NCBI GenBank assembly: GCA_046484745.1
Contig: JAWOIJ010000068.1
Location: 68,076-132,075 of the forward strand
Direction: 5' to 3'
DNA length: 64,000 nucleotides
Source: Desulfobacterales bacterium
Lineage (GTDB): Bacteria; Desulfobacterota; Desulfobacteria; Desulfobacterales; SURF-7
Within the stretch, counting starts at the first letter, position 1. Each line of letters starts with the position of its first letter. Shown here one piece after another: positions 2,547 through 59,718 of the stretch. The notes below the pieces were generated by a model. That model saw only the letters and a program-made list of their open reading frames with translations. It made no database searches and was not told the DNA's origin. Both the position numbers and the translations under genes were made by a program.

Positions 2547-3725
2547 TTATCTTTTATCGAGTGGAATAAAGGAACATTCATCCGGACCGCAATAGTCTCC
2601 GATATATTCCGCGTCCGGGCGATAAAGTACCGGTTTTGCGCCGGCCCCTCCAAATTGCTCTTCGATAACATGGGCTGCCCAGCCTACGACTCTGGCAACT
2701 GCAAAAACCGGTGTAAATAGATCTACGGGTATTCCCATGTAGTAATAAAGGGACGCGCTGTAGAAATCTACATTCGCATAAATCTCTTTTTCTTTTTTAC
2801 GTTTAAAGGCTTCCTTTCCCTTCTCTTCGAGAGTTTTGGAAAGTTCATACCATGTAGGATCTCCTGTCCGCTCTCCCATCTTTTTGGACATGGGAGCCAG
2901 GATACGCGCCCGGGGATCATCTGTCTGATATACGGCGTGTCCGAGCCCCATGATCTTTCCGCCGGTTTCCAGAATCCGCTCAACATAACCCTCGACCCTG
3001 TCAACCGAACCGATTTCAAACAGCATCTGCATCACACGGGTGTTTGCTCCGCCATGAAGCTCACCGGAAAGCGACCCGATTGCAGCAGCTATCGCTGCAT
3101 AAATGTGTGCCCGGGTAGAGGCAACCTGGCGTGCGGAAAAGGTTGAAGCATTAAAGGAATGCTCCGCGTGAAGAACCAGACAGGTATTGAAAAAATCCGC
3201 AATCTCATCATCCGGCTTTTCTCCTTTCAACATATATAAAAAATTTGCCGCCTGATTGAATTCAGGAGAAGGCTGAACCGGTGCCTGGCCGTTTCGAATC
3301 CTGCCCCATGCCGTAACGATTGTCGGCATTTTGGCAATAAGACGGATTGCCATGCGCAATGTCGCCTCCCGGGAATACTCTCTGATGTCCGGATCATGAT
3401 GCGCCAGCATGGTAACGGATGACTGCAGGATATCCATGGGAAGGGCATCTTTCGGACTCGACTTCAGTGCCTCGATAATGACTTCCGGAACATGCATATT
3501 CTCCGCTAATCGAGACTTGAGTTCAGAAAGCTCCTTTTTCTCCGGAAACCTTTCATATAGAAGAAGAAATATAATCTCTTCAAACTCCGCCATCCCCGCA
3601 AGGTCTTTTGCCAGGTATCCTCTGTATGACAATTTCCCTGCCGCACCATCCACATCGCTTATTTTGGTCGTTGCAACGGAAAATCCCCTTAAACCGGTAT
3701 TGAGAATAGGTCTGCACTCTTCCAT
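2547..3725 (-). CDS. citrate synthase (short, archaeal/Gram-positive type)
   Basis: 392 aa with citrate synthase signatures: HAEHSFNAST, GLGHAVY and the DFYSA context. Confidence 0.9.
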   Translation of the reverse strand: MEECRPILNTGLRGFSVATTKISDVDGAAGKLSYRGYLAKDLAGMAEFEEIIFLLLYERFPEKKELSELKSRLAENMHVPEVIIEALKSSPKDALPMDILQSSVTMLAHHDPDIREYSREATLRMAIRLIAKMPTIVTAWGRIRNGQAPVQPSPEFNQAANFLYMLKGEKPDDEIADFFNTCLVLHAEHSFNASTFSARQVASTRAHIYAAIAAAIGSLSGELHGGANTRVMQMLFEIGSVDRVEGYVERILETGGKIMGLGHAVYQTDDPRARILAPMSKKMGERTGDPTWYELSKTLEEKGKEAFKRKKEKEIYANVDFYSASLYYYMGIPVDLFTPVFAVARVVGWAAHVIEEQFGGAGAKPVLYRPDAEYIGDYCGPDECSFIPLDKR

Positions 3726-3810
3726 AATAAACTCCCTGTATGTTTGTCATGTGTTTACGGGTTTGTTCAATATTGCAGCGGAACGCTTTGATCCATCAAT
3801 GGAAATACGA

Positions 3811-4020
3811 TTAAATATCGATCCACATATCTGCTTCATTGCCACAGTGAGTACAGGTACCTGTCGCTTTTACCTTTGAGACGATCTTCGCTTCCTTTTC
3901 ATCCGTTTCCCCGGATTTTTCTACCGCTTCTTCATATTCAGACAGTGAACAGGTCAACTCCATCTCCGCTTCATTGCCGCAATGGACGCATTTGCATACT
4001 TGCTTTAAATTTTTGGTCAT
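3811..4020 (-). CDS. small Cys-rich protein with an internal duplicated CxHCGNEAxM motif (zinc-ribbon-like), function unknown
   Basis: The track ORF 3811..4143 is trimmed to the ATG at 4020, which is preceded by GGAGG (4026-4030, minus strand). The 69-aa product is MTKNLKQVCKCVHCGNEAEMELTC...TGTCTHCGNEADMWIDI. Confidence 0.6.
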   Translation of the reverse strand: MTKNLKQVCKCVHCGNEAEMELTCSLSEYEEAVEKSGETDEKEAKIVSKVKATGTCTHCGNEADMWIDI

Positions 4021-4138
4021 TTTTCCTCCACTTTTCGGAATCTCTGGTTTATGATTTTTCAGTTTTATCTTGAAGAAATGATTTGTAGAAAACCCATTAC
4101 ACGAACAGATTTTTTTTCTACCATACTTTTCACCAAAT

Positions 4139-4154
4139 ATCAATTATTGTGCCA
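4139..4154 (-). promoter_or_regulatory. sigma54-like -24/-12 element with variant -12 (TGGCACAATAATTGAT)
   Basis: The minus strand reads TTGGCAC-AATAA-TTGAT with correct GG-N10 spacing but GA instead of GC at -12. It lies about 120 nt upstream of the 3811..4020 start. Confidence 0.35.
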
Positions 4155-4167
4155 AAATAGTGATTGT

Positions 4168-4755
4168 TTAAAATGAAAGGAACGAGGTCAATGCGCCATG
4201 TTCGCGGAGTATGTTTACCCCGATAGCGATCAGTACCCCGGCACCAGCAAATTCAGCATACCGTTGAAGAAAAACAAATCTGCTCGCACGGCTTCCAAGC
4301 AGCAGCCCGGCCGCGGTAAATATCGCCGCAATGATGCCGATCACAAGAGCGGGAAACCATATTGAAATATTGATAAATGCCAAACTCAGCCCCACAGCGA
4401 GCGCATCGATGCTGGTGGCAATCGAAAGCAGCACCAGGTTCGAGCCTTTTGTGGGATCATTAGGCGATACACGCTTTTCGGATTTTTCAAGGGCGGATCG
4501 GAACATGTTCATGCTTACAAATGCAAGCAGGCCAAAAGCAGCCCAGTGGTCATATCTTTCGATAAGATCCCGTATGGACAGCCCTGCGCCATATCCGATA
4601 ACCGGCATCATTGCCTGAAATAAGCCGAAATGCCATGACAGACGGAAAAACTGCCGGGGACTGACATGTTGAAGCGTGATCCCGGAAGCAACGGCAACAG
4701 CGAACGCATCCATCGCAAGGGCGACGGCTAAAGCGAAAAGATTGATAAAATTCAA
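4168..4755 (-). CDS. mntP: manganese efflux pump MntP
   Basis: 195 aa and hydrophobic. The N-terminus LAVALAMDAFAVAVASG and the internal SIDALAVGLS repeat are typical of the MntP/DUF204 family. Confidence 0.8.
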   Translation of the reverse strand: MNFINLFALAVALAMDAFAVAVASGITLQHVSPRQFFRLSWHFGLFQAMMPVIGYGAGLSIRDLIERYDHWAAFGLLAFVSMNMFRSALEKSEKRVSPNDPTKGSNLVLLSIATSIDALAVGLSLAFINISIWFPALVIGIIAAIFTAAGLLLGSRASRFVFLQRYAEFAGAGVLIAIGVNILREHGALTSFLSF

Positions 4756-4767
4756 AATAATATTCGT

Positions 4768-5100
4768 TTAGAAAACGATTTTTTCGGGCGGCCGCCTCTC
4801 CGGAACATATTCATGCTCAATCTGATTCTCGTTCCATTCTTTAGAGACGTACAGATTGCAGTAGCAGCTGCCATATTCCTCAACATCAGGCTTGCGGTAG
4901 ATACAGGGGCATACAATATCCTTGTCGCCCTCCCGGTCTCCTGAGGCGAGCCTGCATGGGCAGGCAATGTACCCGTAACGCTCCTTGTTCACGGTAAGGG
5001 CTTCCAGCAGTTCGAAAACCTTTTCCCGGTCCCTGTTGAAATAATACCCTTTTGCTTCCTGAGATTTTTTGAGCATTTCATACAGCTTTTCAGTTTCCAT
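4768..5100 (-). CDS. ferredoxin:thioredoxin reductase catalytic-subunit-like protein (FTR/FDR family)
   Basis: The sequence CPCRLASGDREGDKDIVCPCIYRKPDVEEYGSCYCNLY gives the CPC-x-CPC-x-C(Y)C cluster and disulfide pattern of FTR-B, with CYC in place of the classical CHC. The start overlaps the upstream stop (TGATG). Confidence 0.75.
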   Translation of the reverse strand: METEKLYEMLKKSQEAKGYYFNRDREKVFELLEALTVNKERYGYIACPCRLASGDREGDKDIVCPCIYRKPDVEEYGSCYCNLYVSKEWNENQIEHEYVPERRPPEKIVF

Positions 5101-5372
5101 CAGATGCCGAGCGCCTCCTTGATCTCTTTTTCCTTATATCCAACGATGACCTTATCACCGATTATAATGGTAGGGAAAGAACATCTTTCATTCACCTTTT
5201 TCACATCTTCAATAATCGCTTTACGCTCTTCTCCTTCCAGGGTATCGACGTCGACATACTCATATTCAATGTTGCATTCGCTAAGCAGTTTCTTGGCTGA
5301 TCTGCAATGACCGCAGGTGCTCAGCGAATAGACCTTGACCTCTTCATGATTCATAGCGGTTTTCCCTTTCAT
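5100..5372 (-). CDS. glutaredoxin-like / thioredoxin-fold protein (CGHC active site)
   Basis: VKVYSLSTCGHCRSAKKLL followed by FPTIIIG is a glutaredoxin-like fold. The likely true start is the ATG at 5354 (MNHEEVKVY), which has a purine-rich RBS. It is translationally coupled to the FTR-like gene. Confidence 0.75.
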   Translation of the reverse strand: MKGKTAMNHEEVKVYSLSTCGHCRSAKKLLSECNIEYEYVDVDTLEGEERKAIIEDVKKVNERCSFPTIIIGDKVIVGYKEKEIKEALGI

Positions 5373-15785: not shown

Positions 15786-17449
15786 TGCGCAAGAAAAACT
15801 TACCTCATCGGAAAGATACGACCGGGCAGACACGTGAGGCAAACAAAAGCGCGGTGTCTCCAGACTCGGCGGCCGTGAATACCCTCGCCGAGCGCGAGAC
15901 CGCGGTTTTTAACCAAGAACAGGCCGTTCTTAATCGTGAAGAGGCTGCCACTCTCCGAGAAGATGGTGCCAGCCAGCGTGAAGAGGCCGCCGACCTGCGC
16001 GAGAAGGTCGCCGAAATTGACGCCAAGGCTAAAAACACGCAAAGGAGCGCGGGCACCGAGGAGCAGCTGCGCGAGGCGAACGAGCACCTCGTCGTCGCGA
16101 CGGTTCGCGCCCAGACGATGACCGATGCAGCCGAGCAGACCGCCGCGCAGATGACCCATATGGCCGAGCACGACTTTCTCACGGGTTTACCGAACCGTAT
16201 GCTGCTGACCGACCGCTTAGAGCAGGCGATCACAATCGCACAGCGTCATGGCAAACAGGTCGCCCTGATATTTCTGGACCTCGACAACTTCAAGCATATC
16301 AACGATTCGCACGGGCATGAGGTCGGCGATCAATTGCTGCAGTCGGCCGCAAAGCGCCTGCAGGCGTGTGTTCGCCACTCCGATACCGTCAGCCGCCAAG
16401 GAGGCGACGAATTCGTGGTGCTGCTGCCCGAAGTCGATAAGGTGCAGGGCGCTGTCCTCATCGCCGAAAAGTTGATGGAGGCCATGGCCGAACCGCATCT
16501 TATCAACGGACACCGGCTCCACGTCAGCCTGAGCATCGGCATCAGCCTCTACCCTGATGACGGCAAGGACGTCGAAGCGGTAGTCGGGAACGCCGACACC
16601 GCAATGTATCACGCCAAGAAGAGCGGGCGCAACAACTACCAGGTGTTCACTCCGAACATGAATGTCCGTGCGGTTGCGCGGCAAGCCATCGAGCAGGGGC
16701 TGCACCAAGCGCTCGATCAGTTCAGGTTTGTTTTGCATTACCAGCCTAAGGTGAATCTCGAAACCGGCACAATTACCGGTGCGGAAGCCCTTCTCCGCTG
16801 GAAGCGATCCGATCATCGTCTCGTTAGCCCGAAACAGTTCATGAGTATCGCCGAAAACTGCGGCCTCATTCTGCAGATCGGAAAGTGGGTGCTGCGCGAA
16901 GCCTGCCGTCAGACACAAGCCTGGTTGCATGCCGGCCTCGAACTCGGTCAGATCGCGGTCAACGTTTCGGCCAAGGAGTTCCTTTGTAAAGATTTTCTTG
17001 CCGACGTCCGTACCATATTGGGTGACACCGGCCTGGAACCGCACTACCTCGAAATCGAGCTGACCGAAAGCGGACTCATACACGACATCCAAAAGACAAC
17101 GACGTCTTTGTATGCGCTCAAGGACCTCGGCGTTCAAATTGCTGTCGATGACTTTGGCACCGGCTATTCCAGTCTGAACAATCTGTGGAGTTTCCCAATC
17201 GACACGCTCAAGATCGACCAGTCGTTTGTCCAGGATATCAACAATGATGCCGGCAAGGCCATCGTCAATACAATCATTGCGATGGGCATGAGCCTCAAAC
17301 AGCGAGTCGTGGCCGAAGGCATTGAAACTCGGAAACAGCTCGCATTCCTGCAAGCCCATCGCTGCGCCGAGGGACAAGGCTATTATTTCGGAAGGCCCGT
17401 GGCTGCCGAGGAATTCGCCACATTGCTGACAGAAACCGACAGGAATTAA
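15785..17449 (+). CDS. GGDEF-EAL protein with N-terminal coiled coil (diguanylate cyclase/phosphodiesterase)
   Basis: The ATG overlaps the KaiC-like stop (TGATG). The GGDEF motif is intact (RQGGDEFVVLL) and EAL-domain blocks are present (EIELTES, DDFGTGYSS, KIDQSF). The N-terminal 110 aa is a repetitive RE-rich coiled coil. Confidence 0.9.
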   Translation: MRKKNLPHRKDTTGQTREANKSAVSPDSAAVNTLAERETAVFNQEQAVLNREEAATLREDGASQREEAADLREKVAEIDAKAKNTQRSAGTEEQLREANEHLVVATVRAQTMTDAAEQTAAQMTHMAEHDFLTGLPNRMLLTDRLEQAITIAQRHGKQVALIFLDLDNFKHINDSHGHEVGDQLLQSAAKRLQACVRHSDTVSRQGGDEFVVLLPEVDKVQGAVLIAEKLMEAMAEPHLINGHRLHVSLSIGISLYPDDGKDVEAVVGNADTAMYHAKKSGRNNYQVFTPNMNVRAVARQAIEQGLHQALDQFRFVLHYQPKVNLETGTITGAEALLRWKRSDHRLVSPKQFMSIAENCGLILQIGKWVLREACRQTQAWLHAGLELGQIAVNVSAKEFLCKDFLADVRTILGDTGLEPHYLEIELTESGLIHDIQKTTTSLYALKDLGVQIAVDDFGTGYSSLNNLWSFPIDTLKIDQSFVQDINNDAGKAIVNTIIAMGMSLKQRVVAEGIETRKQLAFLQAHRCAEGQGYYFGRPVAAEEFATLLTETDRN

Positions 17450-52019: not shown

Positions 52020-52061
52020 CTCTTAAAACGAGAATAATAGTGCCGTTATTCACCCTATAAG

Positions 52062-52077
52062 TTCAATCTTTGTGCCA
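52062..52077 (-). promoter_or_regulatory. -24/-12-like element TGGCACAAAGATTGAA, module copy A
   Basis: Read on the minus strand. It is identical to the copy at 63806-63821 and lies about 215 nt upstream of the ATG at 51845. Confidence 0.5.
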
Positions 52078-52177
52078 TGTTTCCGACACTCAGAGGCGAA
52101 TCACCCATCTTTCTGATTTATAAGAATAATTAGTTTAAAAAGCTCATTCAGGGCAGTCATGAACAGCCATATAAGAG

Positions 52178-52208
52178 GGTCATATTTAACCGGTGGTTAT
52201 ATATGACC
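52178..52208 (-). promoter_or_regulatory. tandem palindromic boxes (putative UAS), module copy A
   Basis: GGTCATATTTAACC (52178-52191), then GGT, then GGTTATATATGACC (52195-52208). Confidence 0.55.
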
Positions 52209-52256
52209 CTTTTCCGGCGGTTTTGCTGCTCATGTATAAAATTTGAATCGCTCAGA

Positions 52257-52772
52257 TTAAAATTTAAAACCAATGCCTAAAAGATAGACGAACCGTCCAT
52301 CATTATAATTATCATCTATTTCATCCGTATCTTCGAAGAGAAATTGATATTCTATACCTCCGGTAATGAACGTCGTGTCATTGACAAAATATTTTACGCC
52401 GCCTTCCAGTCCTGCAATAAATTGCTCTTCGACCGACTCACCGTATAAATAGCCGATACTGGCTCCAAGATATGGATGCCAGCGCCCCAAATCAAAATTA
52501 TAATCGAACGCTAACCGGGTAGAACCATTCCAACTGTCGCGGCCGGGGAGATCGGCATATGAAATCCCTTGCCGCCAAATTGATTCTAAGTTTTGGGTCA
52601 AGAAAAGCCCCAGACCGGCTTCGATATTGAACACTGTGCCATCAAAACTTTCATCGCTGGACCCGTTTCCACCCAGTGTCAATTCCAAATCCCCCTGCTT
52701 GTATGCCGCCATAGCCGTTGGAACAACAAACAACATAGATACTACCATCAACATGAACATTAATTTTTTCAT
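52257..52772 (-). CDS. small outer-membrane beta-barrel protein
   Basis: 171 aa. It has a signal peptide, alternating beta-strand pattern and a C-terminal GIGFKF. Confidence 0.65.
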   Translation of the reverse strand: MKKLMFMLMVVSMLFVVPTAMAAYKQGDLELTLGGNGSSDESFDGTVFNIEAGLGLFLTQNLESIWRQGISYADLPGRDSWNGSTRLAFDYNFDLGRWHPYLGASIGYLYGESVEEQFIAGLEGGVKYFVNDTTFITGGIEYQFLFEDTDEIDDNYNDGRFVYLLGIGFKF

Positions 52773-52950: not shown

Positions 52951-54126
52951 CTATACCCTGCCGGACCGTTTCTCCTGGGCATACCCCGCTATTCCGGTCA
53001 TGAATCGAACCAATTCATAACAGAGCCAACTCACCAGACGCAGCCCAATGGGCTGAATTTTCCAGCTAGTTTGAAGTACTCGCCGTGCCCCGATATCAAT
53101 GGCACGCTCCAGGCTATACCTCAGTGTTTTGGCAAAGGCTTCATCATCAACAACAACATTTGCTTCAAGAGAGAGCAGCAGACTGAAAGGGTCAAGATTT
53201 GAGGAACCCACCGTAGCCCAATGTTTATCAATCACAGCAACTTTAGCGTGCATGAGGCTCTGGTGGTATTCGTAAATCTCAATTCCCGCATCCAGAAAAC
53301 TGCCATATAGGGCATGCGAGGCATAATGCAGCAATCGATAATCCGCCTTTCCTTGCAACAGCAGTATCACCCGGACACCGCGCCCGGCTGCATCCAAAAG
53401 CGCATGACGAAAATTCAATCCGGGTAAAAAGTAGGCATTTGCCAGAATGATTTCAAATTGCGCCTGTTCAATCGCCTGTAAATAGGCATCTTCAATATCG
53501 CGGCGATGGCGGACATTATCCCTTACCAGAAAAGCCGCCCGCATGTGACCCTTGGATTCGGTTGAGGGAGATTGTCTGTCGTTTCCCGGGCCCCAGCCAG
53601 GACGCAGGCGGGTCCAGACCACCCGCGACCACACCCGGCGGGCGGAAGCATGTATTTTTTTCACCAGCGGCCCCTCCACACTTACAGCGTAGTCATAACG
53701 AGGCGATGTTTGGCCAGGCGTATCCATGTCATCGATAATGTTAATCCCCCCGACAAATGCAAACTTCCGGTCCACGACCACAACTTTCCGGTGCAAGCGA
53801 CGCAACCTCCGGCGCCGCAGCGTCCAGGGCGATATCTTGGGCCGAAACTTCAGCACCATTACGCCGGCCGCCTCAAGATAATCAATCATGGTTTTCGATA
53901 AACCTTGCGAGCCGAATCCATCGATCAGAACATGGGTTTTTACACCTCGAAAGGCTGCCCGCCGGAGCGATTCCGCAATGCGTAATCCAATATTATCCTT
54001 TTCGAAAATATAACTTTCCAGATAAATTTCATGCACTGCCCGGTCCAGCGCCGCTTCGAGTGCCGGAAAATACGCTTCACCGTTTTGCAACAGGCGAATC
54101 TGATTGTCTGGAACAGTTTGAATCAC
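52951..54126 (-). CDS. clsB: cardiolipin synthase B-like phospholipase D family protein
   Basis: Two HKD motifs (HRKVVVVD...GGINI; HAKVAVID...GSSNLD) and no N-terminal transmembrane segment. Its short C-terminal tail is mildly hydrophobic. Confidence 0.8.
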   Translation of the reverse strand: MIQTVPDNQIRLLQNGEAYFPALEAALDRAVHEIYLESYIFEKDNIGLRIAESLRRAAFRGVKTHVLIDGFGSQGLSKTMIDYLEAAGVMVLKFRPKISPWTLRRRRLRRLHRKVVVVDRKFAFVGGINIIDDMDTPGQTSPRYDYAVSVEGPLVKKIHASARRVWSRVVWTRLRPGWGPGNDRQSPSTESKGHMRAAFLVRDNVRHRRDIEDAYLQAIEQAQFEIILANAYFLPGLNFRHALLDAAGRGVRVILLLQGKADYRLLHYASHALYGSFLDAGIEIYEYHQSLMHAKVAVIDKHWATVGSSNLDPFSLLLSLEANVVVDDEAFAKTLRYSLERAIDIGARRVLQTSWKIQPIGLRLVSWLCYELVRFMTGIAGYAQEKRSGRV

Positions 54127-54715: not shown

Positions 54716-55498
54716 CTATACGGTCATGTTGTTGATCACCTTCTTTACGCCATGGACATCGCTCACGAGTTTGGCGGCCAGGTCCTTTTCAGCCTTGTTC
54801 CCGGCTTTGCCGCCCAACGTGACCACGCCATCCTTCGTATTTACAGTGGTGTCGAGACCGCTGGTCGAGCGGTGATACAGCAATGTCGTCTTGACCAGGG
54901 CAGTGATCGAGGCGTCATCAACCGATTCGATCACGGAATCCATCTTTTGGCCTATCGTGGTTCCGGCCGGCTTCGCTTTGGCTGTCTTGACTGTCATCTT
55001 GTTGTTAACCTTTTTGACGCCTTCCACATCCGCGGCGTATTCGGTCGTCAGATCCTTCTGGGCCTCGCTGTCGGCTTCGCCTAGCAAGGTGATGTTCCCG
55101 TCTTTTGCATTAACCTCAGTTCCGGTGGCGCTCACGTTCCGATGAAACAACAGTGTGGTTTTCACTTTGGTAATGAGCCACGCATCCGAGTTCTCGGCAG
55201 GGGCTTCATCTTCTACTTCCAGCTTGTTGTACACACTTTTAACTCCGGGAAGACTCGCTACGGTCTCTTTGGCCAATGATTTGTGGGATTCTTCGTTTAC
55301 AGTCCCTGTCAGGGTGACGGCGCCATCCTTGGATGAGACCTCAACGTCATCGCCCTTGAGGTAGGTCTTGAACACATACGACTTCATGGCGGCTGACTCG
55401 ATGCGGTCATCCGTATCGGATGCGAACACAGGGACATTGATCAGAAACATAGAAACCACAGCTGCTATCAGCGTTACGCAATACATTGTTTTTTTCAT
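54716..55498 (-). CDS. periplasmic BON-domain protein (OsmY-like, three BON repeats)
   Basis: Signal peptide plus three repeats of the pattern V...KDGxVTLxGxV......A......GVKxVxNxxxV. Confidence 0.85.
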   Translation of the reverse strand: MKKTMYCVTLIAAVVSMFLINVPVFASDTDDRIESAAMKSYVFKTYLKGDDVEVSSKDGAVTLTGTVNEESHKSLAKETVASLPGVKSVYNKLEVEDEAPAENSDAWLITKVKTTLLFHRNVSATGTEVNAKDGNITLLGEADSEAQKDLTTEYAADVEGVKKVNNKMTVKTAKAKPAGTTIGQKMDSVIESVDDASITALVKTTLLYHRSTSGLDTTVNTKDGVVTLGGKAGNKAEKDLAAKLVSDVHGVKKVINNMTV

Positions 55499-55709
55499 GG
55501 TGCTTTTCCTCCTTTTATGATTGTTGTTGTGTTACCGTTTCCGGAAACCTTTTCCGGACAATTCATTCGATTCGTACTTTCAGATCACAGGCAGGACAGG
55601 ATTTCTCTTCTTTGGGCCCTGGGAGGGATTGCGGCAGCAAGGTGCCCAACAAGAACAATAGCTCCGTTATTCACTGTTTTTCATATCCGAATCTATATCA
55701 ACCTTACTA

Positions 55710-55725
55710 TTCAACCTTTGTGCCA
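55710..55725 (-). promoter_or_regulatory. -24/-12-like element TGGCACAAAGGTTGAA, module copy B
   Basis: Read on the minus strand, about 215 nt upstream of the BON gene ATG. Confidence 0.5.
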
Positions 55726-55825
55726 CTTTTTGCCAGGCTTCCAACATTCCACCCATGGTCTCAATTTATAAGAACAATTTAGTTTCAGAGCATCTGAAGG
55801 GCGGTCTTAACCGCCATGAGAATAA

Positions 55826-55858
55826 GGTCATATTCACAATCCGTGATCATATATGACC
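55826..55858. promoter_or_regulatory. tandem palindromic boxes (putative UAS), module copy B, in a divergent region
   Basis: GGTCATATTCACAA (55826-55839), then TCCGT, then GATCATATATGACC (55845-55858). Confidence 0.55.
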
Positions 55859-56036
55859 TTTTTTCCCTGCTTTTATGGAATGGTGTGCCATCAAGACCCA
55901 TCACAACCAGTTCGATTTGATGTAGGTTGCTTATCGGTGCCGGACTCTTGATTCAGCGCGAGCTTAAGGGATAGACGAGCGGTATTCGTTCGTTATCCAA
56001 GCGCAAGTCCATACTTCTGATCGATTTTTCGGCTAT

Positions 56037-56052
56037 TGGCAGGCCTTTTGCT
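56037..56052 (+). promoter_or_regulatory. canonical sigma54 -24/-12 promoter (TGGCAGGCCTTTTGCT) for mlaEFD
   Basis: Correct GG-N10-GC spacing. It lies 175 nt upstream of the mlaE ATG and 180-210 bp from the copy B boxes. Confidence 0.55.
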
Positions 56053-56225: not shown

Positions 56226-57074
56226 ATGGCGCTTGATACGAACATTCCGCCTCCCTCTGTGAATGAAGCCGGATGGAAGCTTTTTACGCTCTTGTCGCGG
56301 CCATTTGCCGCTATGGGGAGAGTTGCAATCAACGGGATCGACAATTTAGGCGCTGCGGGTATTTTCCTTATTCTGGCGTTGGTCAAGATCGTAAGGCCCA
56401 ATCAGCTGTCCAAGATTGTTCATCAAATTTATTACATCGGGACGCGGTCTACGCCGATCATCATGCTCGTCGGCCTGTTCACCGGTATGGTCATAGGCCT
56501 CCAATCCTATTATGCATTGAATAAAGTCGGCGCTCAAGGAGCACTCGGAACTCTTGTAGCCCTGACTCTGGTCAGGGAATTGGGGCCTGTCCTCGCAGCC
56601 ATCATGATTGCAGCCAGGGCAGGGTCCGCCATCAGTGCAGAGATCAGCGTCCAGCGTATCTCCGAACAGATTGACGCGCTTTATACCATGCGCATTGATC
56701 CGATTGGGTATCTTGTCAGCCCGAGAGTTGCCGCTGCCATCATCAGCTTTCCCATGCTCACCGCCCTGTTCGATCTCATCGGTATAATCGGCGGGTATAT
56801 CTCCGGTGTACTGATTCTGGGTGCGAATGCCGGTACCTATTTTTATCGTGTTCAAACCAGTTTAGACATGAAAGATGTCTTCGACGGTTTCATCAAATCC
56901 ATCATTTTTGCCTTTATCGTCGTCACCGTCTGCTGTTATCAGGGTTATTTTGCGCATTTGCGTACGGATAGTCGTGGGGCCGAGTCCGTCGGACTTGCCA
57001 CCACCTCCGCCGTTGTCATCTCCTGTGTTCTGATTTTGGTGTCGGACTATGTCGTAACTTCCCTTCTGATGTAG
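56226..57074 (+). CDS. mlaE: MlaE-family lipid ABC transporter permease
   Basis: 282 aa with conserved MlaE/Ttg2B blocks (VGAQGALGTLVALTLVRELGPVLAAIMIAARAGSA). Confidence 0.85.
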   Translation: MALDTNIPPPSVNEAGWKLFTLLSRPFAAMGRVAINGIDNLGAAGIFLILALVKIVRPNQLSKIVHQIYYIGTRSTPIIMLVGLFTGMVIGLQSYYALNKVGAQGALGTLVALTLVRELGPVLAAIMIAARAGSAISAEISVQRISEQIDALYTMRIDPIGYLVSPRVAAAIISFPMLTALFDLIGIIGGYISGVLILGANAGTYFYRVQTSLDMKDVFDGFIKSIIFAFIVVTVCCYQGYFAHLRTDSRGAESVGLATTSAVVISCVLILVSDYVVTSLLM

Positions 57075-57082
57075 AGAGAGCC

Positions 57083-58327
57083 ATGGATACGCCATTGATT
57101 GAATTTAAAGAGGTCACAAAGAGGTTTGGAACCGAAACCGTCCTCGAAGGTGTAAACCTCAAGATATACGAGAAGCAGGTCACGACCATCATCGGTGTGA
57201 GTGGCGGCGGCAAGAGTGTCCTCCTGAAGCTTATCATCGGGCTGCTTAAACCTGATGAGGGAACCATTCTTTTCCGGGGCAAATCTTTTGCTGAAATGAA
57301 AAAACACGAAATAACCGCCTCTTTTGCCCGGATGAGTTACATGTTTCAAGACAATGCCCTGTTTGATTCCATGACTGTTTATGAAAATATTGCGCTGCCG
57401 CTTCGGGAAACAACGAAACATGGAAAGACTGAAATAAACCGGATGGTAATGGCCGGAATCGAACAGACGGAACTGGTCGACGCGGCCGACAAGTTTCCTT
57501 CCGAACTCTCCGGCGGTATGCAGAAGAGGGTGGCCCTGGCACGGGCACTGGTTATTGACCCTCAGATTGTCCTCTTTGACGAACCCACTTCCGGGCAGGA
57601 CCCTGTCCGGAAAAATGCAATTCTGAGCATGGTTGCCCAGTACCAACGAAAATTCGGCTTTACTGCGGTTCTGGTGAGCCATGAGATTCCGGATGTGTAT
57701 TTTATCTCAAACCGTATTCTCGCCCTCTATCATAAAAAAATCGTTTTTCAGGGCACTCCGGAAGAGCTTGATAGTTTCAATCACCCTTTCAAAGACGAGG
57801 TCATCCTCAGCCTGGAAGGATTGCAGGATGAATTAACGGGCCTGCACTCCAGGCGGATGTTTAATGTCATGTATCATTCCCAGCTGAAACATAAAACCAA
57901 CAGTGAGACATACTCCGTGGCGGTTTTTACCCTAAATACGCAGGATGCTATTTTAGGAGGTCTGGGCTTCGAGGAGGCACAGCGGGTGATCAATGCCATG
58001 GGGGTATATATCGATAAACACTTCGGCGCCATCGGGGGTTTTTCCACACGCCGCAAAATCAATGAATTTGTGTCGGTTCTCCCGTATTCGGATCTGGCTG
58101 AGGCTGAAGAAATCATGAAGGTTTTTGTCAAGGATTTCCAGGAACAGGGAATTCGTGACATTCGCTTCGAGGATCGCAGGCGAAGGGTTTCACGGGAATG
58201 CATTGAGATGTCGATCCACGCCGGTTTTGCCCAGGGTCAACCCATTGCCGAAATAGATACCGTCATCGAATCTGCCAAATCTCAACAAAAAAAAATAGGC
58301 CGGATTCTGTGTTCCAACAAGGAGTAA
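57083..58327 (+). CDS. MlaF-like ABC ATPase fused to a C-terminal degenerate GGDEF domain
   Basis: The N-terminal 245 aa has Walker A GVSGGGKS, the signature LSGGMQKRV and Walker B VLFDEPTS. From residue 249 it reads DELTGLHSRRMF...GGFSTRRKINEFVSVLP...SIHAGFA, a GGDEF fold in which GGDEF is replaced by KINEF. Confidence 0.8.
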   Translation: MDTPLIEFKEVTKRFGTETVLEGVNLKIYEKQVTTIIGVSGGGKSVLLKLIIGLLKPDEGTILFRGKSFAEMKKHEITASFARMSYMFQDNALFDSMTVYENIALPLRETTKHGKTEINRMVMAGIEQTELVDAADKFPSELSGGMQKRVALARALVIDPQIVLFDEPTSGQDPVRKNAILSMVAQYQRKFGFTAVLVSHEIPDVYFISNRILALYHKKIVFQGTPEELDSFNHPFKDEVILSLEGLQDELTGLHSRRMFNVMYHSQLKHKTNSETYSVAVFTLNTQDAILGGLGFEEAQRVINAMGVYIDKHFGAIGGFSTRRKINEFVSVLPYSDLAEAEEIMKVFVKDFQEQGIRDIRFEDRRRRVSRECIEMSIHAGFAQGQPIAEIDTVIESAKSQQKKIGRILCSNKE

Positions 58328-58331
58328 AACC

Positions 58332-58787
58332 ATGAAAAAGTACTCAAAAGAAACTACAGTAGGAATTTTTCTCGTATTCGGCTTGCTCTGCATCGGGTAC
58401 ATGACGGTCACACTTGGCCATGTTTCCTTTCTCGGCGGCAATTCCTACCCTCTTTTCGCCCCTTTCACCACGGTAGCCGGGTTGAGAGTCGGCAGCCTCG
58501 TATATATGAACGGCATTGAGATCGGACGGGTGGAACGGCTTTCCATCGATCAGAAAAACCAGAAAAGCATGGTGGAAATGCGGATTCATAAGGGTATTGA
58601 AATTTATGATGATGCCCTCGCTTCCATTAAAACGGAAGGGCTGATCGGCGATATGCATGTCAGCATAGACGCCGGAGGCGCGGGCGCGCTCCTTCAACCA
58701 GGCGGTATCATTACCGAGACGATGCCGCCTCTGGATATCGCGGACCTCATCAGCAAGTATGTCTTCGGTGATTTAGATAAGCCATAA
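58332..58787 (+). CDS. mlaD: MlaD (MCE-domain) substrate-binding protein
   Basis: 151 aa. An N-terminal anchor is followed by MCE-domain blocks (GLRVGSLVYMNGIEIGRV). Confidence 0.8.
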   Translation: MKKYSKETTVGIFLVFGLLCIGYMTVTLGHVSFLGGNSYPLFAPFTTVAGLRVGSLVYMNGIEIGRVERLSIDQKNQKSMVEMRIHKGIEIYDDALASIKTEGLIGDMHVSIDAGGAGALLQPGGIITETMPPLDIADLISKYVFGDLDKP

Positions 58788-58851: not shown

Positions 58852-59172
58852 TCACCGTTCAATCGGAATAGATTGATGACAATCACTATAAATGTTCTCC
58901 ATGGGATCCAGCTGGGCCTTATAATCTCCGGTTATCTGAATCTCATGATTGAGACCTTTCACACCCTTGAAGTTTTTTAGAAAAACACTTTGACCAAACG
59001 GATGAACGTTTGAAATCCCGCACGTATGGATAAAAACCTTTCGAGCTTTTTTGCATTTATCCTGCAATGCATGAATCAGTTCAAAAGCAGAATTGCCATC
59101 AAAAGAGCCAGTAAGGTTAAGGTGAACATTTTCGCTGTTTCGGTGAATCTGAATTTTAAAATTTGATGCCAT
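58852..59172 (-). CDS. small STAS-like (anti-sigma antagonist-like) protein, tentative
   Basis: 106 aa. The pattern VHLNLTGSFDGNSAFELIHAL...KVFIHTCGISNVHPFG resembles a STAS fold. There is no phosphorylatable-Ser context that I can verify. Confidence 0.35.
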   Translation of the reverse strand: MASNFKIQIHRNSENVHLNLTGSFDGNSAFELIHALQDKCKKARKVFIHTCGISNVHPFGQSVFLKNFKGVKGLNHEIQITGDYKAQLDPMENIYSDCHQSIPIER

Positions 59173-59294: not shown

Positions 59295-59690
59295 TCAATC
59301 TATAGAAGATCTATCAGGTCCTGATGCATGGTTTCTGATGCACGCTTCCACCCAAAGTTTCTGATAATAGGATAAATCCTGAAACTCCATACGGCAACAT
59401 TGAACGCCATTTGAATTGTTCGGATTTTCATACGCAATCTTTGCATCAGAAATAATATGCGTACTGAATTTAAAAGGACCGTATTTTAAATTGTCTGTTG
59501 TATTGTCGAACATAAATGATACTTCGCATGCATCGCTCATGATTTCTTTTTTCCCCTTATAATGGAAAGATAATCCACCATGACTGATATCGACAATCTT
59601 CCCGATTAGATCAAAATAGGGTTCGAGTACAACTAACGTTCCATCTGTAACGTTATGCCTTTGATGTCTTCTAGACTCTTTCTGATTCAT
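59295..59690 (-). CDS. PilZ-domain c-di-GMP binding protein
   Basis: Trimmed to the ATG at 59690 (AGGAAGGAGA upstream). It has the RRHQR (RxxxR) and DISHGGLSF (D/NxSxxG) motifs. Confidence 0.75.
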   Translation of the reverse strand: MNQKESRRHQRHNVTDGTLVVLEPYFDLIGKIVDISHGGLSFHYKGKKEIMSDACEVSFMFDNTTDNLKYGPFKFSTHIISDAKIAYENPNNSNGVQCCRMEFQDLSYYQKLWVEACIRNHASGPDRSSID

Positions 59691-59718
59691 GATTCTCTTC
59701 TCCTTCCTCAAACTGAGA

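Follow-up and report, generated by a model that had tools for sequence, protein, structure and literature searches.

The window analysed here, a stretch of 64,000 nucleotides from a bacterium of the sulfate-reducer lineage Desulfobacterales (assembly GCA_046484745.1, contig JAWOIJ010000068.1, positions 68,076 to 132,075), encodes an ATPase of the MlaF type that is fused, within one open reading frame (ORF), to a C-terminal degenerate domain of the GGDEF fold. The protein (414 amino acids; 57083..58327, + strand), in the following called window MlaF, is the ATPase subunit of a phospholipid ATP-binding cassette (ABC) transporter of the MlaFED (MCE) type. Both of its domains are identified, its gene belongs to an mla operon, its GGDEF-like domain has lost the catalytic and the known ligand-binding residues, and the fusion is deeply conserved.

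The gene lies between mlaE, encoding the permease subunit (282 amino acids; 56226..57074, + strand; PF02405 MlaE, 258.7 bits), and mlaD, encoding the MCE-domain subunit (151 amino acids; 58332..58787, + strand; PF02470, 60.7 bits). The gaps measure 8 nucleotides between mlaE and mlaF and 4 nucleotides between mlaF and mlaD, hence the three genes form a tightly packed mlaE-mlaF-mlaD operon. This operon ends with mlaD, and neither mlaC nor mlaA was found after it. Residues 1-248 of window MlaF (57083..57826, + strand) comprise a complete ABC nucleotide-binding domain and a short linker helix (PF00005, 115.9 bits), and the tail, residues 249-414 together with the stop codon, takes up exactly 57827..58327 (+ strand). 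An initial annotation, made from the letters of this DNA alone, had placed a degenerate GGDEF domain at these coordinates and quoted several of its peptides. All of them are present in the ORF, where the tail reads YSVAVFTLN at residues 277-285, GGFSTRRKINEF at 318-329, SIHAGFAQGQP at 377-387 and AKSQQKKIGR at 398-407.

The ATPase domain displays the full set of ABC nucleotide-binding features (Walker A, Q-loop, signature, Walker B, H-loop), with Walker A GVSGGGKS at residues 38-45, the signature LSGGMQ at 142-147, Walker B IVLFDEP at 162-168 and the H-loop VSHEI at 198-202. With these motifs located and the PF00005 match given above, the initial description of a complete MlaF-type ATPase with Walker A, signature and Walker B is confirmed. 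The top NCBIfam model is MlaF (NF008809), which is matched with 196 bits and thus below its equivalog cut-off of 441; by sequence, window MlaF is an MlaF-type ATPase and not an equivalog of the enterobacterial protein. Among PDB entries, those closest in sequence are MlaF from A. baumannii, E. coli and P. aeruginosa, together with the ATPase of a mycobacterial Mce system. When the AlphaFold2 model was compared to known structures by Foldseek, the best match was likewise MlaF (E. coli, 6xgy; E 1.5e-28, root-mean-square deviation 2.4 Å, 36% identity).

A plain sequence search of the tail against PDB chains yielded nothing significant (best E 0.85, SadC). As sequence alone is unconvincing at this level, profile and fold comparisons were needed. 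The hidden Markov model (HMM) search with PF00990, which had been proposed as a check on residues 249-414, gave matches above the cut-off of 23.8 bits both for the whole protein (29.3 bits) and for the tail alone (30.8 bits), covering profile positions 3-157 of 161. A profile built from 29 orthologous tails aligned to eight canonical GGDEF domains of the same genome with an hhalign probability of 97.3% (E 1.9e-11). The AlphaFold2 model of the tail (predicted local distance difference test, pLDDT, 74; predicted template modelling score, pTM, 0.72) displays the order a0-b1-a-a2-b2-b3-a3-b4-a4-b5, and the 50 PDB structures that Foldseek ranked highest for it are GGDEF domains without exception, among them those of SadC, DgcB, PleD, SiaD, FimX, WspR and DgcZ, with template modelling (TM) scores of about 0.6 and SadC as the best (4wxw; E 5e-6, TM 0.63). 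Profile, alignment, topology and fold comparison thus bear out the presence of a degenerate GGDEF-fold domain on the MlaF ATPase.

For the mapping of functional residues, about 150 fused tails were aligned to an HMM of the canonical GGDEF domains of this genome, with hhalign and phmmer as checks. Positions are given in PleD numbering, and the states of the 414-residue family were read from about 100 listed members. At the metal ligand D327 the family carries T, K or S (T in window MlaF). The GTP contact K332 is replaced by D, and the guanine contacts N335 and D344 are replaced by I, V or L and by Q, respectively. The I-site motif R359-x-x-D362 reads G-a-i-G in the family (G-A-I-G in window MlaF), and the second I-site residue, R390, is V or D (V in window MlaF). 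Within the pentad, G368-G369-[DE]370 has become x-x-N, and R366, E371 and F372 of the pentad region are retained. At two positions mapped by eye, the phosphate contact 446 keeps a basic residue (K in the family) and the GTP contact 442 is K, E or R. One correction concerns GGFSTRRKINEF, which the initial annotation had set in place of RxGGDEFxxxLP: the two glycines of GGFST do not correspond to those of the GGDEF pentad. They sit just past the old I-site, in the strand leading to R366, and the aligned pentad is KINEF. With this pentad and a threonine at the metal ligand D327, the tail, judged by its residues, cannot be a cyclase and cannot make cyclic di-GMP (c-di-GMP), in agreement with the initial view that catalytic and metal-binding residues are lost. 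The further suggestion of a c-di-GMP or GTP input finds no counterpart in the known sites of window MlaF, where RxxD has turned into G-A-I-G, R390 into V, and the GTP contacts K332, N335 and D344 are replaced. As the ligands of the I-site, and of the A-site too, are exchanged, canonical sensing of c-di-GMP or GTP by window MlaF appears unlikely.

What the tail conserves instead was read from the alignment of the 29 orthologs. Conservation is strongest in MGVYIDKHFGxIGGFSTRxxxNEFVTVLP, which runs from the end of helix a2 through the b2-b3 hairpin and includes GAIG at the old I-site and KINEF at the GGDEF position; in window MlaF this most conserved block, as located by conservation and residue mapping, reads MGVYIDKHFGAIGGFSTRRKINEFVSVLP (57998..58084, + strand). 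The domain is joined to the linker helix by an entry or hinge motif, DELTGLHSRRMF (residues 249-260; 57827..57862, + strand), in which the DxLTGL..R.F pattern is retained; across the orthologs it appears as ELTGL.S.R.F, with G5, R10 and F12 invariant and E2, L3, L6 and S8 conserved to at least 90%. Further conserved stretches are AG.AQGQP after strand b4 and QQKEIGR..C at the C-terminal end, and in total 37 tail positions are invariant, the 29-residue block included. Cys373 (just before strand b4; 58199..58201, + strand; at least 90% conserved) and Cys410 (just after strand b5; 58310..58312, + strand; invariant) are the only cysteines of window MlaF, and both lie in the tail. Among 37 representatives at 50% identity, nine carry both cysteines, four and three carry a single one and 21 carry neither (Fisher p 8e-4, uncorrected for phylogeny).

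The same genome encodes four MlaE-type systems, located in the window (contig C77) and on contigs C2, C28 and C17, the latter being the fourth. Contig C2 holds the only complete Mla operon (L038:1993-6160, - strand; L-numbers denote genome loci), in the order mlaE-mlaF-mlaD-mlaC-mlaA, and with it the only mlaC and mlaA of the genome. Its MlaF, of 403 amino acids, is also fused to a GGDEF-like domain (51 bits; its tail includes VQKHLRIIDFCSRCGLNKL). In this paralog RxxD is present as RIID, correctly spaced relative to a pentad (GLNKL) that is dead, and TRLS provides an arginine at the position of R390. RIID is invariant in eight orthologs of the paralog found by protein search. RxxD is kept in six of eight further orthologs from other genomes, with position 390 mostly K or R shifted by one residue. 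A profile of the paralog's domain was given up as a means to count paralogs in the phylum, as it is unspecific and also matched ordinary cyclases in 369 of 401 genomes; only its nine matches below E 1e-35 were counted as orthologs. The C-terminus of the 403-residue family, FR[IV]C, contains the counterpart of Cys410. As RxxD and the R390 position are kept, the C2 paralog would be the better candidate for c-di-GMP binding, which on sequence grounds appears considerably more plausible there than in window MlaF. On contig C28 (L039:2059-5749, - strand), a STAS domain is fused to the N-terminus of MlaE (384 amino acids) and accompanied by a plain ATPase of 258 amino acids, an MCE protein of 352 amino acids and a lipoprotein of 207 amino acids. 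Neither the window operon nor the C2 operon contains an mlaB gene; hence, wherever an MCE system of this genome carries a cytoplasmic accessory domain, this domain is of either the STAS or the GGDEF-like type. The genome further encodes 11 canonical GGDEF domains, i.e. a working c-di-GMP network. One canonical domain (189.6 bits), with GGDEF and RxxD intact, lies in a 561-residue open frame of the window itself (16163-16636, corresponding to C77:84238-84711).

At least 733 proteins match the tail when it is searched by itself (E<=1e-3); the top 120 of them are nearly all 414 amino acids long, and most are already annotated as PF00005+PF00990 in precomputed data. The order mlaE-mlaF(GGDEF)-mlaD was found in 32 of 32 related genome loci that were recovered, with labels comprising Desulfobacterales, Desulfosudis oleivorans, Syntrophaceae/Smithella, Syntrophales, Desulfomonilia, Deferrimicrobium and Thermodesulfobacteriota (a few metagenome-assembled genomes, MAGs, are doubtfully labelled). 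One locus, L002, is nearly identical to the window (97-98% throughout); without it, identity to the window amounts to 77-90% in the ATPase domain, 65-85% in MlaE, 58-83% in MlaD and 44-80% in the tail. In 28 of the 32 loci mlaC-mlaA directly follows mlaD, the arrangement being absent, as in the window, from L002, L003 and L006. Independent gene calls with precomputed Pfam domains display for one member the series MlaE, ABC_tran+GGDEF, MlaD, MlaC and MlaA, followed by genes of phospholipid synthesis. In a Syntrophales-type relative, genes for a CTP_transf_like protein and a CDP-alcohol phosphatidyltransferase (phospholipid synthesis; L071:10025-11190) are located 3' of mlaEFDCA. Conservation across the 32 loci does not extend to any neighbour beyond mlaE, mlaD, mlaC and mlaA. 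Of 401 genomes sampled evenly from the phylum, about 45 contain a match over the full length, in a frame of roughly 400-520 amino acids. The survey of MlaF homologs that had been advised thus displays an extension that is phylogenetically conserved. The fixed length in hundreds of proteins and the presence in 32 genomes rule out a chance match or a missing stop codon. In another genome of the phylum (G147), tails of the 403 and 414 types are found about 4 kb apart (contig C15:480-953 and 4740-5225, both - strand), which suggests tandem mla operons.

Beyond these orthologs, a set of 1.8 billion proteins, represented at 50% identity, contains many MlaF-like ATPases of 360-430 amino acids with a C-terminal extension. 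PF00990 matches 18 of 37 such extensions tested, the remainder being too diverged for detection. The ATPase domain was also used by itself for a maximum-likelihood tree of 83 rows. In this tree a starred clade (Shimodaira-Hasegawa-like approximate likelihood ratio test, SH-aLRT, 97) contains 49 rows, of which 41 are fused, and both paralogs of this genome fall inside it. The fused label is clustered on this tree far beyond what shuffling produces (0 of 500 shuffles). These results agree with a single old fusion, which would have been kept while the tail diverged. RxxD is kept in several fused branches (P0168, P0172, P0182, P0215 and the paralog family), hence the I-site is probably ancestral and was lost in the 414-residue family. 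A metagenome representative of 426 amino acids (P0193) combines an MlaF-like ATPase with a nearly intact GGDEF domain (GGKEF, DxD, N335, D344, all GTP contacts and RxxD). The ATPase-domain tree, where it is placed outside the fused clade, does not support it as the ancestor of the family, and it probably represents a separate, independent fusion.

In E. coli, MlaF carries a C-terminal extension of about 25 residues that engages in a reciprocal "handshake" and stabilises the MlaF dimer on the complex; deletion of the extension abolishes function, and fusion of a GCN4 dimerisation domain in its place largely restores it (Kolich et al. 2020, PMC7367683). The GGDEF-like domain of window MlaF starts at the same point of the chain as this extension. 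Neither an extension of the E. coli type nor an MlaB partner was found in the window system, and its operon contains no STAS gene. Based on this analogy, we hypothesize that the tail, as an integral dimerising or regulatory domain, does the work of both the handshake tail and MlaB, a reading to which we would give about even chances. The 166-residue domain would be attached via the short helix and the retained DxLTGL hinge, the motif that connects GGDEF domains with the helix before them, and in an MlaF dimer its two copies would sit under both ATPase domains. There the tails may bind one another or contact the ATPase domains, and such an association could hold the ATPase dimer on MlaE and set the ease with which it closes. 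The near-invariant a2/b2-b3 block and the conserved cysteine pair may represent the surface for contact or switching. Our confidence in this mechanism is moderate because the inter-domain geometry of the model is uncertain.

Known transporters provide both parallels and differences. E. coli MlaFEDB (PDB 6xgy, 6xbd) belongs to the same transporter family and has the same operon logic of mlaE, mlaF and mlaD, joined in most relatives of the window operon by mlaC and mlaA, whereas it relies on an extended 25-residue tail and the STAS protein MlaB in place of a folded 166-residue domain. The STAS-MlaE fusion on contig C28 is alike in that a cytoplasmic accessory domain is fused into an MCE/Mla subunit and free MlaB is missing; it differs in the fold, in the partner, which is the N-terminus of the permease, and in its plain ATPase. 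A folded domain behind the ATPase domain of the same chain is likewise known from MetN (C2), MalK (regulatory domain), ModC (TOBE) and OpuA (CBS). In contrast to these, the tail of window MlaF is of the GGDEF/palm type, Mla is an MCE-type lipid transporter and not a solute importer, and pairing of the tails is predicted only by analogy. MetN is the only ATPase in the PDB that aligned across both domains of the full-length model (6cvl, 3tui, 3tuz, 3dhw; 360-368 columns). The ferredoxin-like C2 domains of MetN pair beneath the ATPase domains and mediate trans-inhibition in MetNI.

Several points weigh against a built-in dimerising domain. In the full-length AlphaFold2 model the placement of the two domains relative to each other is poorly defined (pTM 0.57; linker 243-252 with pLDDT <50), and isolated GGDEF domains are often monomeric when an accessory dimeriser is missing. 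The near-invariant polar block (D-K-H ... S-T-R ... N-E) and the two cysteines would seem to exceed the needs of a passive dimeriser, and could equally mark a ligand or redox site. As mlaC and mlaA are missing from the window operon, its physiological role may differ from that of the canonical system. Furthermore, seven "short" proteins fall inside the fused clade; if complete, they would imply that the domain is dispensable in some lineages, yet they may be truncated metagenome calls.

The most serious alternative to a built-in dimeriser starts from this conservation. The old I-site/A-site region may have become a new pocket, with a cytoplasmic metabolite, a lipid precursor or some phosphorylated compound as its ligand, or else Cys373 and Cys410 may form a thiol or metal switch. 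Occupancy would then lock or release both tails and turn transport on or off in the manner of trans-inhibition in MetNI and ModBC. We regard such a ligand- or redox-gated clamp as possible, albeit on a tentative footing. Conservation peaks in the hairpin block and in AGxAQGQP and not at generic core positions, R366, E371, F372 and the basic residue 446 persist amid changed neighbours, the sole cysteine pair of the protein is conserved and its two members co-occur, and the closest two-domain structural match, MetN, has a ligand-binding ferredoxin-like C2 domain. On the other hand, no ligand can be named, the co-occurrence of the cysteines may reflect shared ancestry, and conservation on a surface would suit a protein-protein interface equally well. 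The reading suggested by the initial annotation, in which the tail is a receptor that couples c-di-GMP or GTP to Mla transport, appears unlikely for window MlaF. Receptors of this kind are established, with PelD, PopA and SgmT acting via RxxD and the GGDEF domain of Caulobacter PdeA via GTP, and the former three share with window MlaF the GGDEF fold, a dead active site and a non-synthetic use. They depend on RxxD, however, whereas window MlaF has G-A-I-G and no R390, and it is the C2 paralog that fits their type by sequence. The c-di-GMP network of the genome, a PilZ gene with RxxxR and DxSxxG adjoining the operon, and the RxxD of the paralog and of several deeper fused branches speak for a receptor, and as the motif is kept in the latter two, the ancestor probably bound c-di-GMP. 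Against this stand the conversion of RxxD to G-a-i-G and of R390 to V/D in window MlaF and roughly 100 listed orthologs, the exchanges N335 to I/V/L, D344 to Q, K332 to D and D327 to T/K, and the retention of the PilZ neighbour in the 98%-identical L002 only.

Degenerate GGDEF domains are also known as interaction modules, and the tail might be a docking platform for another protein. Its partner could be an active diguanylate cyclase, bound by pairing of the two GGDEF domains, or else an enzyme of lipid synthesis or a protein of the STAS or PilZ type. Immediately downstream, the opposite strand carries an ORF of 106 amino acids resembling STAS proteins as well as the PilZ gene, and a cardiolipin-synthase gene of the PLD type is found nearby, in L006 directly upstream of the operon on the same strand. 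Docking is nevertheless improbable in our view, as mlaE, mlaD, mlaC and mlaA are the only conserved neighbours in the 32 loci, the STAS-like match is not significant (E 0.64) and this ORF is absent from L002. That the tail is an evolutionary relic devoid of present function might be thought in view of its lost catalytic and binding residues; this was already disfavoured and is scarcely credible for a domain whose length is fixed at 414 amino acids for the whole protein in hundreds of cases, which is 44-80% identical over lineages where MlaD is 58-83% identical, and which keeps 37 invariant positions including the 29-residue block.

A broader and rather doubtful extension of these ideas would treat the GGDEF-fold tail as a gated clamp on Mla transport in the Thermodesulfobacteriota. 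In the 403-residue form, c-di-GMP would cross-link the tails under the ATPase dimer, and in ancestral as in paralogous proteins this would resemble the product inhibition by which cyclases are immobilised. The 414-residue form of the window would have been re-gated: with the I-site lost and the GGFSTR/NEF hairpin block and Cys373/Cys410 gained, it might answer to another metabolite or to the redox state. Two inner-membrane MlaFED complexes with different gates would then draw on the one MlaC/MlaA pair of this genome, and might even differ in the conditions under which, or the direction in which, they drive the flow of lipids. If true, outer-membrane lipid homeostasis would be tied to a biofilm second messenger.

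ABC ATPases with a C-terminal accessory domain and dead GGDEF domains are known kinds, the latter here in a new context. No paper on an MlaF-GGDEF or ABC-ATPase-GGDEF fusion was found in the full-text literature that was searched, which leaves out most subscription journals. Within that literature the initial statement that such a fusion on an Mla ATPase is not known stands, though the combination PF00005+PF00990 is already contained in automatic annotations of hundreds of proteins. New are a second MlaF-GGDEF copy in this genome that has kept the I-site, the shared and only mlaC/mlaA pair and the ATPase-domain tree, along with the table of residue states, the cysteine pair as sole cysteines and the two-domain match to MetN. 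Regulation of Mla transport, and even its direction, is still debated, and to our knowledge the only regulatory handles in E. coli are the MlaF tail and MlaB, the signal of the latter being unknown. A bacterial phylum with a signalling-type domain in place of tail and MlaB hence provides a natural experiment on the task of the accessory module. As only one of the two paralogs in the cell has retained the c-di-GMP I-site, control of outer-membrane lipid transport by c-di-GMP becomes directly testable. In addition, an ABC-transporter context is added to the roles taken over by dead GGDEF domains.

Upstream of the operon, a sigma54-type -24/-12 element, TGGCAGGCCTTTTGCT (56037..56052, + strand; GG-N10-GC spacing), is located 190 nucleotides before the mlaE start codon ATG. 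The pattern has two matches in the window versus 0.43 expected, hence the count alone is weak evidence. The element (TGGCAGGCC[A/T]TTTGCT) also precedes mlaE in L002, L007 and L008, whereas in the other 28 loci no match scored as high as 10 of 11 positions. As a family-wide feature the promoter was therefore discarded, being present in only 4 of 33 loci, all of them in a Desulfobacterales-like subclade. Read directly from the sequence, a pair of palindromes of the type GGTCATAT...ATATGACC (55826..55860) lies between two divergent promoters; it is a candidate site for an enhancer-binding protein and could serve both. The intergenic module at 55648-55983, to which the palindromes belong, is a copy of a module at 52027-52296, and on its - strand TGGCACAAAGGTTGAA (55710-55725) faces a gene for a protein with three BON domains (54716..55498). 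In view of the element, the repeated module and the recurrence in L002, L007 and L008, the operon plausibly belongs to a sigma54 envelope-stress regulon in the Desulfobacterales-like subclade. The initial proposal of a sigma54-type promoter beside a stress module agrees with the position of the element, the adjacent repeated stress-promoter module and the three related genomes.

Downstream, two ORFs are convergent with mlaD. The ORF of 106 amino acids (58852-59172, - strand) displays a weak and non-significant resemblance to RsbV (STAS; E 0.64); in the absence of a Pfam match, with its opposite orientation and its absence from L002, its identification as MlaB is not supported. The stand-alone PilZ ORF (59295-59711, - strand) contains RRHQR and DISHGG and is matched by Pfam with 19.6 bits, below the cut-off of 22.5; it was dismissed as a conserved partner, as it is kept only in L002. 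The cardiolipin-synthase-like gene of the PLD type is located near the operon at 52951-54126 (- strand). In L006, a MAG of Desulfosudis oleivorans, a 75%-identical homolog (3193-4338, + strand) lies directly upstream of mlaE on the same strand at a distance of about 60 nucleotides, and this position beside mlaE hints at a link to lipid synthesis.

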